From: a virus
Taxonomy: Duplodnaviria; Heunggongvirae; Uroviricota; Caudoviricetes
DNA length: 35,403 nt
IMG/VR virus record: IMGVR_UViG_2648501437_000004
Reading direction: 5' to 3' (one strand)
Position 1 is the stretch's first letter. Every line of letters begins with the position of its first letter. Made by a program: the position numbers and the translations under genes. Below the pieces are notes generated by a model. It had not been told where the DNA came from. It saw only the letters and a list, made by a program, of their open reading frames with translations, and searched no databases. Of this stretch, positions 508 through 11,494 are shown in pieces.

Positions 508-1269
508 TTACGAGGAAGCGTTAGCTATTTGAGCTTGTGTAAATTCGAAACCAGAATTTTGTAACCGTTGCACTAGACGAGGAACTGTTTCACGTACATG
601 GTCGTTGAAATTCAGATACAAAATCCCGTTAGCATCAGAAGGCTGTTCTAGGTGCTGTTTCTGAAGGATTGCTACATTGCTGCGCCCTAAGGACGAAAGA
701 AGCATACCCATCTCGAGTACAACGTTCTGTCTTGCGCGGGGTTGGATTTCTGCTTCACCGGCGCGCTTTGAGTATCCCATATCATCAGGTGTCAAAAGAA
801 CAATCCCGAAACGGGTAGCAGTTTGTCCTTGCCCAATTTCACGTTCAAGCTCTTCAATAATGGTGAGTCCAGTCCCTCCCGTATTCTGCAAAATGAAATG
901 GTCTGGTAATCCAAGTTTATGAAGGATTAGCTCAAGTTGCTCCTTTGCAGTATGGTCATGGCCGTGAACAATGAATATCTTTTTGGGGAGCTCAGATGGC
1001 TGTTCTACGGCTAGTGGTGTTGCCGTGGGCGGCGTTCCTAAATGGGTCATTATTGCAGTTTCAACATTGGGACGTTCTTGAGGGTTACCTTGAAACTGAA
1101 TGGTCCGGGTGGTGTAAAGGTTAACAATTACGCCATTCGTTAAACGATAGCAGTCACAAGTCTCACGCTGTTCGTGGGAAAAATTGGTGAACCCACACTC
1201 CCTCAAAAAGTCAGGAAAAGTTTCTCTCGAGTATGGATAGGTGATCGGCATTTCAGTTAGTTCCTGCAT
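508..1269 (-). CDS. TIR-like domain protein (COG4271/PF10137-type predicted nucleotide-binding TIR-like domain) with an unknown ~90-aa N-terminal domain
   Basis: ATG at 1267-1269 with AAAGGA Shine-Dalgarno. C-terminal half KIFIVHGHDHTAKEQLELILHKLGLPDHFILQ...TIIEELE...FGIVLLTPDDMG matches the FIVHGHD...VLLTPDD signature recalled for this TIR-like family. GC is visibly lower than the adjacent polymerase gene. Confidence 0.55.
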   Translation of the reverse strand: MQELTEMPITYPYSRETFPDFLRECGFTNFSHEQRETCDCYRLTNGVIVNLYTTRTIQFQGNPQERPNVETAIMTHLGTPPTATPLAVEQPSELPKKIFIVHGHDHTAKEQLELILHKLGLPDHFILQNTGGTGLTIIEELEREIGQGQTATRFGIVLLTPDDMGYSKRAGEAEIQPRARQNVVLEMGMLLSSLGRSNVAILQKQHLEQPSDANGILYLNFNDHVRETVPRLVQRLQNSGFEFTQAQIANASS

Positions 1270-3443: not shown

Positions 3444-4073
3444 ATGCATATGATCCAATACTTGATTGACCATACAGAGCATCTGGAGAAAATAGCTGGA
3501 TATATTTTTTCATGTTTGATTGTTATGGGAGTCTGGATAAGAAAGATTATTTTTAATTATAAGTATAAAGAGCCTAAATATGTTAAGAAGTTAATTTTAT
3601 ATTTAGTTAAGTATGAACGTTATCTGGATGAGGAGGATAAGAGTGCCATAGAAAAAAGAATAAATGATAAAATTATTCGTGATGCGCTGAAATTGCAATC
3701 ATCTTATAACCGAAGAGATGTTATTTACATTTGCAATAGATTAGAAAAAAGACAGTATATAAATCAGTTGATTAAGCTTCAGAATTATATAGAGAAAGAT
3801 AACGGAGTGTTTTTTATTAATGTTGATTTTTCAGGTTTTTTATTTATTATTAGTCGTCTGTTTTCCTTTCTGTGTTTTGTGCTGTTTACCCTTTTTTCTA
3901 TTATCTGCATTATTTCCATAGGGCAAAATGAAGGCCTTTTAAATTATCTTGTGTATATGGTTATGATAATAGTTTTAGAGACTGTTGGTTTTTGGATGTA
4001 TGATACTTTCCCGTCTAAGAAAAAGATCTGTGAACTAAATAAAGAATTGAGAAAGATTAAGATTCCTGAGTGA
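3444..4073 (+). CDS. AT-rich hypothetical membrane protein (accessory/moron gene)
   Basis: 209-aa ORF opposite to the flanking operon. GC roughly 25-35% by hand count versus about 50-55% around it. Hydrophobic segments IAGYIFSCLIVMGVWI, FLFIISRLFSFLCFVLFTLFSIICIISIG and LVYMVMIIVLETVGFWMY; Lys/Glu-rich soluble middle. Confidence 0.7.
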   Translation: MHMIQYLIDHTEHLEKIAGYIFSCLIVMGVWIRKIIFNYKYKEPKYVKKLILYLVKYERYLDEEDKSAIEKRINDKIIRDALKLQSSYNRRDVIYICNRLEKRQYINQLIKLQNYIEKDNGVFFINVDFSGFLFIISRLFSFLCFVLFTLFSIICIISIGQNEGLLNYLVYMVMIIVLETVGFWMYDTFPSKKKICELNKELRKIKIPE

Positions 4074-5993: not shown

Positions 5994-6896
5994 TTAACCC
6001 TCCAGTGCTTTTTCAGCCAGGGTGATTACTTCAGCGAGATTTTCATCCGTTACTTCACCAAGTTTCCTGGCTCCCTGTTTTTCCAGAATTGCAATAGCTT
6101 CTGCCCGGTAGCCCCCTTTTGCTAACTGGAGGATCAACCCTTCAGCTTGTTTGCGTAGTGCCGCGAAATCAATTGTATGGTCATCTTTGGCGTCATTATT
6201 CTGGCTGGAATTTGCTGCGTCTCTGCGTGCAAATTCTTCCTGCAGCTGAAGGTACTCAACACGGTTGATCTCGATATGGCCTTTTTTAAGCATCTCGTTC
6301 AACTTGCGTAAGGTGTGGAGTTCACTGGCTGCTGTGCCGGATACATTTTTGACGTAAAACGGCCCCGTGCGTTCTCCATCTTTGTTACTGGCCTTTTTCG
6401 GCTTAACTTCATCACGCCCATCTGCAGGTGCATCAAGTAGCTGCTCGGCAAAAGCACGTCGCTCGCCGATGGTTGGCAGGTCGTCCCAGAACTTAAGGAT
6501 GTTACGGGACAGGTCCAGGAGAGCAGGTTTAAGCAGCGCCCTGGCTCGTTTGACGCCCTGCAATGCGCTGTCGAGAGCATCAATCTGAACTACTCGTTTA
6601 TCGCCTTCAGCATCACGGTAGGCAACAGCACGTTGCAGCATATCTTCTGTGATAGGGGTGGCTACCGGGTAGAAACCAGCCAGTGCGATAACGTCGCTGA
6701 ACTCCAGATCATCCAGTGTCATTGCCGCTGACATATTTTCAGTTTCAGTTGCTGTATCCCGACATTCCTGCACTCGTGAAATCGTGTCAGGATGCATAAC
6801 AATACCTGATGCCATTGTGCGGATAAGACGTTCAAGCAGCGCATTATGTTGTGCCAGAAGTTGATTATTAAGTTCTAGACTGGTTTCTAAACTCAT
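5994..6896 (-). CDS. Hypothetical phage early protein (300 aa)
   Basis: ATG at 6894-6896; stop-start overlap with upstream small ORF; tight coupling (2-nt gap) to the nuclease gene. No family recognised. Confidence 0.65.
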
Positions 6897-7042
6897 ACTG
6901 TGGTCCTCGCTACAAGGAGAATGAAAGTGATGATCAGACCGAGCGCAGTGGCAACGGCCAGACCGGTCATCAAATCGAAGTTTTTACGGCGATAACGGAG
7001 AACATCGCGCCCCGTCAGTCGATGGATGTGTTCAGGTTTCAT
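6893..7042 (-). CDS. Small protein with C-terminal transmembrane helix, first gene of leftward early operon
   Basis: ATG at 7040-7042 preceded by AAGGA; C-terminal hydrophobic helix LAVATALGLIITFILLV. Alternative starts at 7063 (ATG) and 7075 (GTG) lack a Shine-Dalgarno. Confidence 0.4.
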   Translation of the reverse strand: MKPEHIHRLTGRDVLRYRRKNFDLMTGLAVATALGLIITFILLVARTTV

Positions 7043-7101
7043 CGGTTGTATTCCTTTTTTCATATCGGGGAGCACGCTGTTGCGAGTGCGCTTTCAGACA
7101 T

Positions 7102-7126
7102 AAAAAAGCCCGTCACTTGCGGCGGG
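7102..7126 (-). terminator. Putative intrinsic terminator upstream of the leftward early operon
   Basis: Minus-strand RNA gcccg-ccgcaagtga-cgggc followed by UUUUUUA. It sits between the PL-like promoter region and the first early-left gene. Confidence 0.45.
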
Positions 7127-7201
7127 CAAAGACTACACACAGCAATTACATGGATATCATCGAGTGCCTGCTTTTAACCACATCAGGCGAGGTGGTTCTC
7201 C

Positions 7202-7250
7202 TTGTACCCCTACAGTGAGAAATCGTCTAATATCTCTTCACCCCTACAGT
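7202..7250 (+). promoter_or_regulatory. Putative promoter of gene 7267-7785 bracketed by CCCCTACAGT direct repeats
   Basis: -35-like TTGTAC (7202-7207), 18-nt spacer, -10-like TCTAAT (7226-7231). CCCCTACAGT at 7206-7215 and 7241-7250. Imperfect inverted repeat tctaatatctct / agagagattaga flanks the second copy. Confidence 0.35.
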
Positions 7251-7266
7251 TTGAGAGAGATTAGAT

Positions 7267-7785
7267 ATGTCTGAAGAAAAAGGAATTCTTTCCCGGATAA
7301 CTGAATCGTTATCCGGTGTGGGAGGAGCAATTAAAAGCGCGGTTGGAGCAGCAAGAGAGATTCAGAATCTGACTGTCGACTATGCAGTTAAAGAGAAGAC
7401 GCACATCTTACTCGATAAGCTAATGGATGTTCAGATGCAGCAAATGTCGCTTCAGGAGCTGCTGATTGCGGCTAAGGAGAAAATTGTTGAACTGGAAAAT
7501 GAGAAAGTAAAGCAAGAGAACTGGGCCGCTGAAGCGGCGAGCTATGAACTTTACCAGCCTATGCGGGGTACTCTGGTCTATCGCAGCAAGCTTTCTGCAG
7601 ATGCTGACCAATCTCCGGTTTATATTTGTCCCAATTGCTACGAGCAAAAGAGAAAATCTATATTGCAAGCGGAAGGTCTGGTTACTAAGCTAGGCCTTGG
7701 GCGAGTCGTTAATATGGTTTGTTCGTACTGTAGGGCTTCCTATCTGTTCAACCCGAAATGCTTTAGAGGCCCGACTGCCTTCTGA
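7267..7785 (+). CDS. Hypothetical protein with coiled-coil segment and C-terminal Cys4 zinc-ribbon-like motif
   Basis: 172 aa, ATG at 7267 with GAGAGAGA purine-rich Shine-Dalgarno. LQELLIAAKEKIVELENEKVKQE coiled-coil-like; CPNC...18 aa...CSYC. Convergent with CI and the PL-like transcript. Confidence 0.6.
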   Translation: MSEEKGILSRITESLSGVGGAIKSAVGAAREIQNLTVDYAVKEKTHILLDKLMDVQMQQMSLQELLIAAKEKIVELENEKVKQENWAAEAASYELYQPMRGTLVYRSKLSADADQSPVYICPNCYEQKRKSILQAEGLVTKLGLGRVVNMVCSYCRASYLFNPKCFRGPTAF

Positions 7786-7887
7786 AGATGAAAATCCGGG
7801 GAAGGCAATCACGGATTACGATCCTTACAACCAGTAATTTCTTTAAGCATGGGTACCCTTCCGGTCACCCAGAGTTAAAGGAACTAA

Positions 7888-7909
7888 GCGCCCCATCATC
7901 GGGGCGTTT
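7888..7909 (+). terminator. Possible weak terminator downstream of gene 7267-7785
   Basis: cgcccc-atcatc-ggggcg hairpin followed by only TTT. Confidence 0.3.
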
Positions 7910-8099
7910 CAACTTGCGTGACTTATCAGTTCGTCGCGGTGTTGTCCTCTACGCTTACCGTACGCATACGGACTCGGCGCTTACCTCGATCCCATCGGGT
8001 GCTATTTCGTTTTGCCAGGAGCACTGCGGCTTACCTGTCACGCGGTTCTGTTTGTTAAAGAGCTGGTATTAGAAAATGCATTAATTATGCGGTATCGTA

Positions 8100-8128
8100 T
8101 TTATATGCGTTATGGGATTTTGTGTCAA
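8100..8128 (-). promoter_or_regulatory. PL-like leftward promoter with near-consensus sigma70 elements
   Basis: Minus strand reads TTGACA (plus 8123-8128), 17-nt spacer, TATAAA (plus 8100-8105). Overlapped by two tandem copies of a 17-bp operator-like motif (8086-8102, 8104-8120). Lies just past the cI terminator. Confidence 0.6.
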
Positions 8129-8157
8129 TACGAAAATGAATTATTTTGCAAATAAGA

Positions 8158-8182
8158 AAACCGCCCTTGTGGAGAGCGGTTT
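8158..8182 (-). terminator. Intrinsic terminator downstream of cI
   Basis: Minus-strand RNA aaaccgc-tctccacaagg-gcggttt followed by UCUUAUUU; about 30 nt after the cI stop. Confidence 0.5.
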
Positions 8183-8212
8183 GATCAGAGGTAAGTTATC
8201 AGACTGTAAAGG

Positions 8213-8887
8213 TTAGTACATGCGTAGCGCGGATTTGGCGATCCCCGCCACGTAATGGATTTTTTCAATGTTTTCGCGTGGTACTCTGACTGGTGGATGA
8301 TCTTCATTTACAGACATTAGATGGAACAGGCCATCGCGTTCGAACAAGAAGGTTTTAACCATGACCTCACCGTCCCGGGTAACCACAAGTACTTCATCAC
8401 CAGGAGTGTAGTCGTGGTTGGGTTCGACGATTACGAACTCACCCTCTTTGATTCTAGGCATCATTGAATCACCAACACATTTCAGGGCGTATGCATCTTC
8501 ATCCTTTGTCGGCCAGTATATGAAACCATCACTGCTACCTACTGAATATTGGGTGTCGCTCCAAAGTCCTCCAACGCCTAGCTGAGTGTTTCCCAAAACA
8601 GGTACTTTATTAAACCTAAGAGAAATATACGTTTTTATACCTGTCGCGTCCTCTTTCTCCATTTCTTGAAGGCTCCTTTCTGCCAGGTCTATTGGTGACA
8701 CGTGGAAGTAGTCGGCGATCTGCTTTAACGTTGCGTATTTCGGATCTTTCACCTCTCCTGATACCAGCCTGTGTAGCGTTGGTTGGTTCAGCTGTAACCG
8801 ACGTGCCAGCTCAGTTATCGAGCTTATCTTGGTTTTGTCCATCAGGTACTTGATGTTTTGAGAAAGGATATCGGTAGTATCAATCAT
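8213..8887 (-). CDS. cI: CI-like repressor (N-terminal HTH, C-terminal S24 LexA-like autopeptidase domain)
   Basis: 224 aa; HTH-like TELARRLQLNQPTLHRLVSGE; C-terminal S24 signature CVGDSMMP ... VLVV ... KTF with conserved Ser and Lys. Confidence 0.9.
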   Translation of the reverse strand: MIDTTDILSQNIKYLMDKTKISSITELARRLQLNQPTLHRLVSGEVKDPKYATLKQIADYFHVSPIDLAERSLQEMEKEDATGIKTYISLRFNKVPVLGNTQLGVGGLWSDTQYSVGSSDGFIYWPTKDEDAYALKCVGDSMMPRIKEGEFVIVEPNHDYTPGDEVLVVTRDGEVMVKTFLFERDGLFHLMSVNEDHPPVRVPRENIEKIHYVAGIAKSALRMY

Positions 8888-9028
8888 TTGGATTCATCCA
8901 TGTTGTATACAGGGACGGTGATTATGCGTTATCGGATATTTTAATACAGGATGATATAGAATTGCCGTATTGCTGAATAATCCGTTTTCGTATAAATTTG
9001 CGCTATAGACGAAAGTGGAGACTTAAAT
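8888..9028. promoter_or_regulatory. Divergent PRM/PR-like promoter-operator region between cI and cro-like gene
   Basis: 140-bp intergenic between divergent genes. Contains one copy of the 17-bp motif TATGCGTTATCGGATAT (8923-8939) shared with the PL region, ATACAGG repeats (8906, 8944), and -10-like TATAAA (8991-8996) upstream of the cro-like gene. Confidence 0.5.
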
Positions 9029-9229
9029 ATGTCCGGACTAACACCACAAGAGATGGTCAAAAGCTTGATTGATTCAGGGTATACCCAAAACCAAATTGCC
9101 GAAATTGCAGGCGTGAAGCAGTCTTCTATTAGTCGGCTTCTCACCGGGGTTCATTCTGACCCTCGCTTTTCTACAGTACGTGCGATAGAAAAGCTTTTTC
9201 AGGAAGTGACAGCTAGACAAAAGGCGTAA
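9029..9229 (+). CDS. Cro/CII-like small HTH regulator
   Basis: 66 aa, GGAG Shine-Dalgarno; HTH-like QNQIAEIAGVKQSSISRLLTG; first gene rightward from the immunity region. Confidence 0.7.
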   Translation: MSGLTPQEMVKSLIDSGYTQNQIAEIAGVKQSSISRLLTGVHSDPRFSTVRAIEKLFQEVTARQKA

Positions 9230-9232
9230 CCC

Positions 9233-11494
9233 ATGTCTGATAACAAACCATGGGGAGCTACGCCCGATGAGTGGTTCCACTTCGATCTGGTGTTGGGGAT
9301 GACAGACAGGCTTTTACCTGTGGTGTCCAATCCCTGTGCAGAACTGTCGCCTAATAGCAAGCTGTCTCATAATTTCGGCAAAACCCCCAGTCGCTACAAT
9401 GGCCAACGTAAGGTTGTTGGTATCCCCGACTGGGCTAACTATGTTGTTACGGAAAACGATTTTGCCCGGTGGTCGAACGAACCCGATTACGGTATTTGCG
9501 TTCGTACTGGCGACGGGGTGGTGGCTCTGGACTGCGATATCAATGACGCCGGGATGCAGGAGATCGTACGCAATATTATCCTATCATGCCTGGGGGAACT
9601 TCCGCCACGTCGCTGGCGGGCTGACAGTCATAAATGCCTGTACCTGATTGCTGTTGATGGCGACTACCGTAAACGTGGTCACCGCCTGGAAGGCGAAAAC
9701 AAACAAATAGAGCTGCTCGCTAAGGGCCAGCAGTTTGTGGCTTGTGGTACCCATCCGGCAGGCGAACGTATTCAGTGGGACAGCGGTTTGCCCGGCGAAC
9801 CTCTGAAAATTACATCTGAACAGCTCGAAAGCCTGTGGCAGCGTCTGGCGGATAACTTACCCGTGAAAGACAGCTATACCGCAGGTGCAGGACGTCAGCG
9901 TGACCTTTCCTGTGTTGATCCTTCCGCGACAGATGATGTCGCCGACTGGCTTGACGCGAACGGGTGGACTCTGTCAGTCAGCTCTGATGGTTCCCGCAAT
10001 CTGAAACCGTTTCGGGATGAGTCAGAATACAGCAACGGTTGCAGCGAAACATCCATTAAGTATTTTCCAAAAGGGACGGGGGGATTTGAACAGGGACATT
10101 TTAAAAGCATGCACAACACCGATGCGGGGCTTACTGATGCCGACTGGCTGGAAGGCTACGGCTATACGCAATCCCTGTTCGAAGATCTCACGGTGGCTGA
10201 AGATGGCGATAAGCCTGAATTTACCGATATTAATACAGATATGACAGCTCATTTTCTGGAACGCTTTATCTACGTCATCGAGGGTGACCAGGTATGTGAT
10301 CTTAGCCGACCGCCATATCAGTGCATGATGGATATGAAGTCGTTCAAAAACCTGATGGCGCCTTACCAGTTCCCGCCAGAAGGGAAAGGACAACCAACTC
10401 CCGCAACCAAACGGTGGATAGAGCATCGGCATAAGAAGATTGCTGAGACGACAGGCTATAAGCCCGGTGCGGGACGTATTATCGAGCGTTTCGACGGGCG
10501 GTTTGAGATAAACGAATTTTATATGCCTGAGCATCCACGTACAGCGGATACAAGTAAGGTGTCCACGTTCCTTAATCATATGGCGTATCTGGTACCTGAT
10601 GCCTGGCAGCGCGAGTTTTTCATCGCCCGTCTGGGGTGGATGGTTCAGCGTCCGGAGCGTCGATGCCCGATTTCTATTCTGCATGTGGCTACCGCACATG
10701 GTACGGGCAGAGGATGGGTCAGTCAGTTAATGGAGCGCGTGCTTGGCCCGTGGAACTGTGCTCGTACTCGCATGAAGATCCTGTGCGATAACCAGTTCCA
10801 TGACTATCTGTACAATACACTTCTATGCACCATTGACGAGGTGCGCGAAAACGATAAGCGGTATGAGGTGAACGATAAGATCCGTGACGTGCTGACAGAA
10901 CCACGGTTTGAAGTGAACCGCAAATATGGCAGCAAAAAAACGATGGATATATACACCGGCTTTCTGTTCTACACCAACCACTTTGATGCGCTGGCGCTGC
11001 CAGAGGAAGACCGACGTATAGCTGTGCTGGGGGGCCCTGACTTCGCCGCAACTGAAGAGCATTACGCCAGCCTGTACGGTGCGCTAAGCGACAGCGACTT
11101 TATCGCCCAGGTGTACTGGTATCTAATGGGCGTTGACCTGTCTCGCTTTAACTGGCAGCGCGCCCCCGAGACGAAAGAACGCCTTCTGATGATTGAAAGC
11201 AATAAGAGCGATGTGGAGGCTGCTCTTATTGAAATCCTGGATAATCCGCCTGTGCCAGCAATGACTTATCAACAAATTGTTAACGCAATACTGGCAGAAG
11301 CAGGAATGGATGTAGAAATTAACCAGAAGCATATTACTCGCATTTTGAAAGAAAGAACAAAGCGGGAACCCGTACGCGTAAAAATTGACGGGTTTGTATA
11401 TAGGATTTGGATTCTTGTAAAAAATAACGATTTCAGCAACGAAGAATTGCGCGAAATATATAAATCTTGCGAAATTTTGCAATCTGGATTGTAA
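9233..11494 (+). CDS. Primase-polymerase (PrimPol-like) replication initiation protein with C-terminal P4/D5-like region
   Basis: 753 aa; N-terminal prim-pol-like motifs YGICVRTGDGVVALDCDIND and CGTHPAGERIQW; the P-loop-like stretch HGTGRGW lacks the canonical Lys. Immediately followed by the iteron region. Confidence 0.6.
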   Translation: MSDNKPWGATPDEWFHFDLVLGMTDRLLPVVSNPCAELSPNSKLSHNFGKTPSRYNGQRKVVGIPDWANYVVTENDFARWSNEPDYGICVRTGDGVVALDCDINDAGMQEIVRNIILSCLGELPPRRWRADSHKCLYLIAVDGDYRKRGHRLEGENKQIELLAKGQQFVACGTHPAGERIQWDSGLPGEPLKITSEQLESLWQRLADNLPVKDSYTAGAGRQRDLSCVDPSATDDVADWLDANGWTLSVSSDGSRNLKPFRDESEYSNGCSETSIKYFPKGTGGFEQGHFKSMHNTDAGLTDADWLEGYGYTQSLFEDLTVAEDGDKPEFTDINTDMTAHFLERFIYVIEGDQVCDLSRPPYQCMMDMKSFKNLMAPYQFPPEGKGQPTPATKRWIEHRHKKIAETTGYKPGAGRIIERFDGRFEINEFYMPEHPRTADTSKVSTFLNHMAYLVPDAWQREFFIARLGWMVQRPERRCPISILHVATAHGTGRGWVSQLMERVLGPWNCARTRMKILCDNQFHDYLYNTLLCTIDEVRENDKRYEVNDKIRDVLTEPRFEVNRKYGSKKTMDIYTGFLFYTNHFDALALPEEDRRIAVLGGPDFAATEEHYASLYGALSDSDFIAQVYWYLMGVDLSRFNWQRAPETKERLLMIESNKSDVEAALIEILDNPPVPAMTYQQIVNAILAEAGMDVEINQKHITRILKERTKREPVRVKIDGFVYRIWILVKNNDFSNEELREIYKSCEILQSGL

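Follow-up and report, generated by a model that had tools for sequence, protein, structure and literature searches.

To our knowledge, no phage RNA other than put renders RNA polymerase resistant to termination by itself. In HK022, put acts in cis on the polymerase through the β′ zinc-binding domain and does so without phage proteins. The nut sites of lambda contain boxA and, about 8–10 nt after it, boxB, which is a short hairpin with a purine-rich pentaloop. The leaders of rrn operons are organized as boxB-boxA-boxC and are associated with NusA, NusB, NusE, NusG, SuhB and S4; complexes on rrn-type boxA are best documented against Rho and less so against intrinsic terminators. The put RNA is approximately 70 nt in length, forms two stem-loops and works without Nus factors (PMC9378689), and it is found in two copies, putL and putR, one for each early operon. 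A boxA outside rRNA operons has also been described before CRISPR arrays, where it shields non-coding transcripts against Rho (Stringer et al., 2020; PMC7665894).

The window investigated here (the whole stretch of 35,403 nt of IMG/VR record IMGVR_UViG_2648501437_000004) is an E. coli prophage; over the region, identity is 100% with O55:H7 strain DEC5E and 97% with phage vB_EcoM-689R2. Downstream of its PL-like promoter lies a sharply bounded, conserved module of 175 nt (7889–8063, minus strand). Like putL and putR of HK022 and the putL-like RNA of HK639, it is a non-coding RNA whose position in a temperate enterobacterial phage is right behind an early promoter and ahead of terminators, and it uses the same slot, the two being mutually exclusive in two backbones. 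However, it has no sequence or covariance-model similarity to put, as evidenced by our covariance model R1 and an nhmmer profile, which find nothing in the putL of O276 (L179), in HK639 or in the putL siblings described below. Unlike put, the module has a 150–175-nt multi-branch fold and a perfect rrn-type boxA, and it is present once, with no copy on the PR side. It shares with lambda nut a 5′ boxA, a helix after about 8 nt and a position between PL and the first terminator, but it has no 15-nt boxB hairpin, no nutR partner and, in the window or in most carriers, no N-like protein; a large junction domain takes the place of boxB. With the rrn leader it has in common the identical 12-nt boxA, a long untranslated transcript and no need for a phage protein, whereas the module conserves no boxB hairpin before boxA and contains no GU-rich boxC, the conserved elements after boxA being P1 and the junction domain; this domain has no rrn counterpart, and the promoter of the module is a repressor-controlled phage promoter. 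There is no conserved boxB-like hairpin 5′ of boxA because the sequence there differs between immunity types. Finally, before CRISPR arrays boxA stands alone, while in the module it is held at a fixed spacing to a covarying RNA with an intrinsic terminator downstream. From these sequence comparisons, we consider the module to be probably a cis-acting processive antitermination cassette of the early leftward operon that uses boxA and Nus factors.

Location, limits and distribution of the module

The near-consensus minus-strand promoter (TTGACA-17-TATAAA) pointed out in the initial annotation can be read directly from the sequence (Table 1); a consensus promoter scan missed it solely because it demanded a T as the final base of the −10 element. 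The promoter adjoins the repressor (cI) terminator, as had been proposed, and this terminator was found at 8158–8182. An 18-nt operator-like motif, TATGCG(T/G)TAT(C/G)G.., has two copies at the promoter (8086 and 8104) and a third between cI and cro (8923–8940), and a 24-nt inverted repeat is common to both regions. These elements make a repressor-controlled PL credible and fit the earlier description of the promoter as PL-like. Loci L002, L003, L152/L159 and L161 and Yersinia phage YeP4 each possess their own promoter and operator-like repeats at the same position relative to boxA; operator-flanked promoters of at least six immunity types are situated 15–70 nt upstream of boxA, facing in the minus-strand sense. 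The early left replication operon of the window also encodes a 253-aa protein (508–1269, minus strand) with a TIR domain of the CAP12/Pycsar-effector type (Pfam PF10137, E 3e-31).

Table 1. Features of the early region of the window, with coordinates in the window
Feature	Position	Strand	Remarks
Leftward operon	7042..6893 (49-aa membrane protein)		49-aa membrane protein, 300-aa protein, DUF2800, DUF2815, DNA polymerase, TIR-domain protein
RprA-like sRNA sequence and intrinsic terminator	7098..7211	−	Rfam RF00034, 47.5 bits, E 1.5e-4; gathering score of 70 not reached
Optional opposite-strand gene	7267..7785	+	172 aa; coiled N-terminal part, C-terminal CxxC..CxxC; phrog_1244
3′ hairpin, CGCCCC-GAUGAU-GGGGCG	7889..7906	−	9 nt after P1; no U tract on the minus strand
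Structured domain	7913..8051	−	R1 match 7913–8063 (−)
Hairpin c	7951–7980	−	Inner stem 7958–7971; dispensable
Three GGUAAGC in RNA	7953..8035	−	Each: helix end (GG), unpaired UAA, start of next helix (GC)
Hairpin b	7983–8000	−	
Conserved single-stranded CCUGGCAAAACGAAAUAGC	8001–8019	−	
P3	8017–8020 with 7945–7948	−	
P2	8022–8030 with 7933–7941	−	
Internal loop AGGUAA	Between P1 and P2	−	
P1	8037–8043 with 7916–7922	−	
Spacer, 8 nt	8044–8051	−	Between boxA and P1
boxA, GCUCUUUAACAA in RNA	8052..8063	−	About +31 from inferred start; 5′ edge of module
Two operator-like 18-mers, TATGCGGTATCGTATTTA and TATGCGTTATGGGATTTT	8086..8121		Overlap −10 and spacer; from repeat search
PL-like sigma-70 promoter	8100..8128	−	TTGACA 8128..8123, 17-nt spacer, TATAAA 8105..8100; inferred start near A8093
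S24/HTH repressor	8213–8887	−	
Cro-like gene	9029–9229	+	
Primase/DUF5906 protein	9233–11494	+	Q further right

A structured leader had been claimed without any limits being set. A conserved structured unit does exist, but it is confined to 7889–8063, and the boxA at 8052–8063 had been overlooked. In plus coordinates, the right-hand edge of the module always reads TTGTTAAAGAGC, the minus strand of which is GCUCUUUAACAA, and the sole exact copy of CTCTTTAACAA in the window is this boxA. All 12 of its nucleotides are identical to the boxA of the E. coli rrn leader, which lies about 95 nt upstream of 16S and was found in every E. coli genome (5426/5426; median of 7 per genome). The exact boxA core CTTTAACAA is present within 70 nt upstream of the conserved loop motif in 124 of 130 instances of the latter, and a variant boxA in three more; the remainder are two chance matches within coding sequence and one truncated copy (L177). 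Sequences 5′ of boxA diverge at once, and those flanks differ among immunity types, while the spacing between boxA and P1 is constant at 8–9 nt in all types. With the single exception of L177, boxA and the domain are never separated by a recombination edge. The G+C richness ascribed to the leader is real at a local scale (54% vs 38–50% in the surroundings).

A blastn search located the region in 104 of 5426 complete E. coli genomes, with the core of about 175 nt (7889–8063) at 87–100% identity and both flanks varying. Across these genomes and about 90 IMG/VR contigs, the flanks of the conserved block belong to unrelated classes; one E. coli carrier is an unrelated lambdoid prophage. Searching with an 18-nt core word yielded 87 IMG/VR contigs with 52 distinct versions, and further types emerged when boxA was searched for together with the conserved loop motif: A (the window), A′ (lambdoid carriers), B, C and D (Yersinia YeP4-6). 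The four or five divergent types occur in prophages of Escherichia, Citrobacter, Trabulsiella, Pluralibacter and Yersinia, each with a single copy that invariably follows an early promoter directly, and the module is present in the cultured phages vB_EcoM-689R2 (ON470582) and Yersinia YeP4 (MK733262). As sampled, the family is limited to phages of Enterobacterales. A scan of species-representative genomes gave four loci, all near type A or A′; in a metagenome scan with the loop motif, 10 of 11 matches were due to chance. The module is an RNA family new to Rfam 15: no match over it was obtained at gathering scores with the whole window, nor at E values up to 10 with 7000–8250, and ARAGORN reported nothing over the module.

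A conserved multi-branched fold

P1 is the helix nearest to boxA on its 3′ side and closes a domain of about 130 nt. Common to all types are boxA, the 8–9-nt spacer, a P1 of 6–7 bp, an internal loop A/GGG(U/C)AA, P2, a short P3 (UCCU/AGGA) and the invariant single-stranded CCUGGCAAAACGAAAUAGC. The sequences of the helices change with type: one strand of P1 reads GCGUGAC, GAGUGAC, GUGUGAC, GCAUGAC or GCACUG, each accompanied by its complement, and the 4-bp stem of hairpin b is CGAU/AUCG, GCGA/UCGC or GGUA/UACC. Model R1 matches the window at 7913–8063 (minus strand) with 183.7 bits and finds exactly one copy per locus; no second R1 copy was detected on the PR side, either in the window or in any locus. 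Both hairpins of the initial annotation exist. The one given as 7888–7906 is located at 7889–7906 (−12.9 kcal/mol, z −2.4) and delimits the module on the 3′ side in types A, A′ and B; in the Yersinia type D a different hairpin takes its place, and in type C it is variable. For the inner hairpin, the coordinates 7961–7974 were incorrect and should read 7958–7971.

Comparison with relatives revealed a conserved multi-branched fold with strong covariation. Among 56 distinct sequences, 89.3% of the cells can pair, compared with 83.5% after shuffling (a value of 89.3% was reached in 0 of 500 shuffles) and 21–49% when the partners were slid. In a model-aligned set of 35 distinct sequences that includes Yersinia, 26 of 36 pairs have changed on both sides (0/500 shuffles), and the covariation score is 0.288 vs 0.116. 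Although the Yersinia YeP4 RNA has diverged strongly, its minimum-energy fold and that of the window RNA independently show the same architecture. The folding energy of the single RNA-strand sequence is unexceptional (z −0.29); the support for the structure comes from covariation and not from thermodynamics. Since there is little divergence inside the types, much of this covariation stems from a few between-type events.

All three GCTTACC copies reported for the leader (7953, 7979 and 8029) are present, and they represent three of the seven copies in the window, where 3.4 are expected over the whole 35 kb. The importance that had been attached to these GGUAAGC repeats and to the 7958–7971 hairpin was not borne out. 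The heptamer is conserved in type A only, being replaced elsewhere by AGGCAA, AGGCCAA or GGGUAA, and hairpin c is deleted in two natural variants: IMG/VR loci L052 and L089 lack precisely 26 nt between the first two GCTTACC copies (equivalent to 7954–7979 of the window), a loss that looks like a repeat-mediated deletion. The absence of hairpin c from these loci indicates that this arm is dispensable.

Two other assignments for the region were examined and rejected. Our first RNAalifold structure favoured a plus-strand RNA (322 vs 45 G.U cells), an effect of spurious pairs that disappeared on the refined structure, where both strands do equally well (89.3% vs 90.0% pairing). G.U counts being neutral with respect to strand, the strand was called from boxA and the promoters. 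Coding was excluded for the ORFs at 7788–8072, 7918–8058 and 8012–8155 on the plus strand, the last of which is annotated in some records, and for an Arg-rich 32-aa ORF at 7926–8024 on the minus strand, because of indels of 26, 2 and 1 nt and because types A and B run through the conserved motif in different frames.

Exchange with put RNAs and competing explanations

Relatives of the prophage were fetched via its 300-aa protein, and 45 full-length siblings were compared. Twenty-four carry the module and 21 carry putL; none has both and none has neither. The promoter/operator region of L134 is that of L152 and L159 up to ...TTGTAGATTTAACCCCAAGT, after which the sequence is 82.5% identical to HK022 putL, a homolog of which is annotated as antiterminator RNA (putL) in HK75 and O276. 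In L096, putL alone is followed by the same downstream sequence as in the module-bearing L003. Thus L134 and L096 have the promoter region of L152/L159 and the downstream sequence of L003, but a homolog of HK022 putL inside. A second backbone is provided by HK639, whose GenBank record annotates a putL-like antiterminator RNA; L002 and L160 have the 5′ leader of HK639, and L002 has its downstream gene as well, but both loci carry the boxA module where HK639 carries putL. In 16 of the 21 putL siblings, putL alone replaces the whole block of boxA plus domain and the downstream sequence is identical. Swaps at one junction in two unrelated backbones indicate that put and the module are interchangeable alleles of one slot, and since this is the slot of a known put antiterminator RNA, the module is probably a new kind of readthrough RNA switch. 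The initial annotation had considered an HK022 put-like cis antitermination element. Its functional part agrees with the shared junction and the mutual exclusion, while identity with put RNA is contradicted by the lack of similarity, the other fold, the single copy and the boxA.

The remaining five putL siblings contain a non-coding element of about 190 nt, here called element X, after putL (2918–3107 in L134). Its sequence recurs with 86% identity at the early left end of T7-like Klebsiella phages (Przondovirus; 684–874 in phage Oda, L182), where two perfect boxA sequences (GCTCTTTAACAA) flank it. The closing helix of element X shows two compensatory changes. Neither a covariance model nor nhmmer detected homology of the module to element X or to put. 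The occurrence of element X beside putL or boxA implies that such domains may be modules by themselves.

Protection from Rho may be accounted for by boxA alone, in which case the folded domain could have a separate job. According to this explanation, which we regard as possible though rather unlikely, boxA is the anti-Rho or antitermination signal and the domain is an independent early ncRNA, either acting in leader processing or stability or serving in trans as a decoy or sponge of a host factor or a defence system. Signals and domains can evidently combine freely, as illustrated by element X beside putL in five siblings and between two boxA in phage Oda; hairpin c, a part of the domain, is dispensable, and boxA by itself is able to shield long non-coding transcripts from Rho (PMC7665894). 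However, several observations favour one unit: putL alone stands for the whole block in the 16 siblings mentioned, not one of the 45 has boxA alone or putL with the module domain, the 8–9-nt spacing of boxA and P1 is held across types with strongly diverged domains, and no recombination edge separates the two save in the truncated L177.

The absence of an N-like gene, asserted earlier, was confirmed by Pfam and PHROGs searches of the left-operon proteins and by an Arg-rich scan of all ORFs of at least 30 aa. There is no credible N candidate in the window, though a divergent N might still be encoded, and no protein family was found within 3 kb of the module that is common to the different phage backbones. 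One lambdoid carrier, L160 (IMGVR_UViG_2924896205_000007), does possess an N gene, located some 600 nt past the module, whose product has a near lambda-identical arginine-rich motif (MDARARRRERRAEKQAEWKAAN), yet a search allowing up to three mismatches detected no lambda-type boxB within its 6.8-kb locus. After cro, L160 also has a boxA-like CTCTTTAAAAA followed by a different G+C-rich hairpin. The Gp17/N system of the mEp021 type was set aside, as it belongs to another phage group and uses classical boxA-boxB sites (PMC11893012). L160 would suit an atypical nutL, in which a large insertion closed by P1 places boxA beside the 3′ hairpin (7889–7906) or hairpin b, either of which would act as boxB for an unrecognised phage protein. 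The geometry is that of nut, with a helix about 8 nt after boxA, and P1 brings the 3′ hairpin within some 17 unpaired nt of boxA. Still, we consider such a nutL improbable, given that the window encodes no N-like or arginine-rich-motif protein, that the frame of the Arg-rich 32-aa ORF inside the domain (7926–8024) is not conserved and that the element resides in at least four unrelated phage backbones with no nearby protein family in common. The exchange with put RNAs, which need no phage protein, the lack of a second (nutR) copy and the unconserved 3′ hairpin in types C and D point in the same direction.

A plus-strand or DNA element, be it a terminator or 3′ structure of gene 7267–7785 or an origin or iteron made of the three direct GCTTACC repeats, is very improbable despite the slightly better folding of the plus strand of the window (z −1.96 vs +0.34) and a hairpin at 7889–7906 that, followed by TTTCAACTT, could terminate a plus-strand gene, for the module is kept where no plus-strand gene precedes it (L003 and L096-type contexts), both strands pair equally well on the refined structure, boxA marks the module edge on the minus strand only with the promoters always facing in that sense, the heptamers are unconserved outside type A, and the compensatory changes maintain base pairs, for which a double-stranded DNA site would have no need.

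The downstream leader and the proposed role of the module

It had been stated that no minus-strand ORF of 60 aa or more exists for about 1 kb downstream of the promoter. Strictly, this is incorrect, as an 82-aa ORF with a TTG start is present at 7420–7668, antisense to gene 7267–7785; this ORF is not credible and the leader contains no credible sense ORF. The terminator placed at 7102–7126 was recovered with its stem at 7108–7127 and a U tract at 7102–7107, and it constitutes the 3′ end of an RprA-like sRNA that had been missed. It is the first strong stop for PL transcription ahead of the 49-aa gene and the replication genes. The module is followed by RprA-like sequence in 66 of 87 loci, and such sequence is found in nearly all siblings, including those of the putL type; its 3′ half (AAUUGCUGUGUGUAGUCUUUGCCC plus the terminator) is identical to the RprA consensus and its 5′ half is unrelated. 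The RprA-like RNA may be a phage mimic of the host RpoS-activating sRNA, derived from terminated PL transcripts. In L003 and L096, a 64-aa zinc-ribbon ORF (MKTYKPLKGECPACQ...CPECG...; 3735–3929 on the minus strand of L003 and 3545–3739 on the plus strand of L096) has the RprA-like sequence as its 3′ UTR. In phages without the opposite-strand insert, this ORF, unannotated in RefSeq, is the first one in the sense direction that follows the module or putL.

The insert itself, gene 7267–7785, is present in 19 of about 90 loci and absent from L003 and L096. It sits convergently between the module and the RprA-like terminator, where its position relates it to the 'ECs_2282 family zinc-binding protein', and has two copies of ACTGTAGGGGT (7195–7260) directly upstream, on the other strand; it is probably a moron expressed in the lysogen. 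As a result of its insertion, the PL leader is about 1,050 nt long, untranslated and antisense to the gene. A long untranslated antisense leader is a likely substrate for Rho. Antisense control of gene 7267–7785 had been suggested as the purpose of the element; this idea finds no support, since the gene is optional and the module is retained without it, for example in L003.

A terminator before the first sense gene, together with an untranslated leader of about 1 kb, means that antitermination is needed. For the cis-acting cassette that we favour, PL transcription would begin upon inactivation of the repressor, with the module RNA leading the transcript. The presence of boxA argues for the involvement of Nus factors: at the 5′ end of the module it would recruit host NusB-S10 and thereby the Nus machinery, as in rrn operons and at lambda nut sites. 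The multi-branch domain, which begins 8 nt downstream, where lambda has boxB, would then do the job of N or of a put RNA by gripping the elongating polymerase or NusA. Polymerase modified in such a manner could withstand Rho over the untranslated antisense leader and pass the RprA-like terminator (7102–7127) into the genes for the 49-aa protein, the 300-aa protein, DUF2800, DUF2815 and DNA polymerase. More tentatively, the module might represent a third route that relies on RNA only, in which the junction domain replaces N and boxB and assembles Nus factors with the rrn-identical boxA; it would be a hybrid of put and nut/rrn that is mobile among unrelated Enterobacterales phages and freely swapped with put.

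Our literature searches found no boxA-linked, N-independent phage antiterminator RNA. The best reading of the sequence data is that the module is analogous to put and nut and a member of neither; it constitutes an RNA family of its own and adds a variant to the cis-acting signals known for processive antitermination. If this is true, the existence of a second, unrelated RNA in the put slot, with a perfect boxA, would mean that phages have evolved more than one protein-free solution. At about 150 nt and self-contained, the module could serve as a portable antitermination part. It would also provide a natural system to learn what, besides boxA, makes the host Nus machinery a full antiterminator that passes intrinsic terminators, which is also a question for rrn operons.
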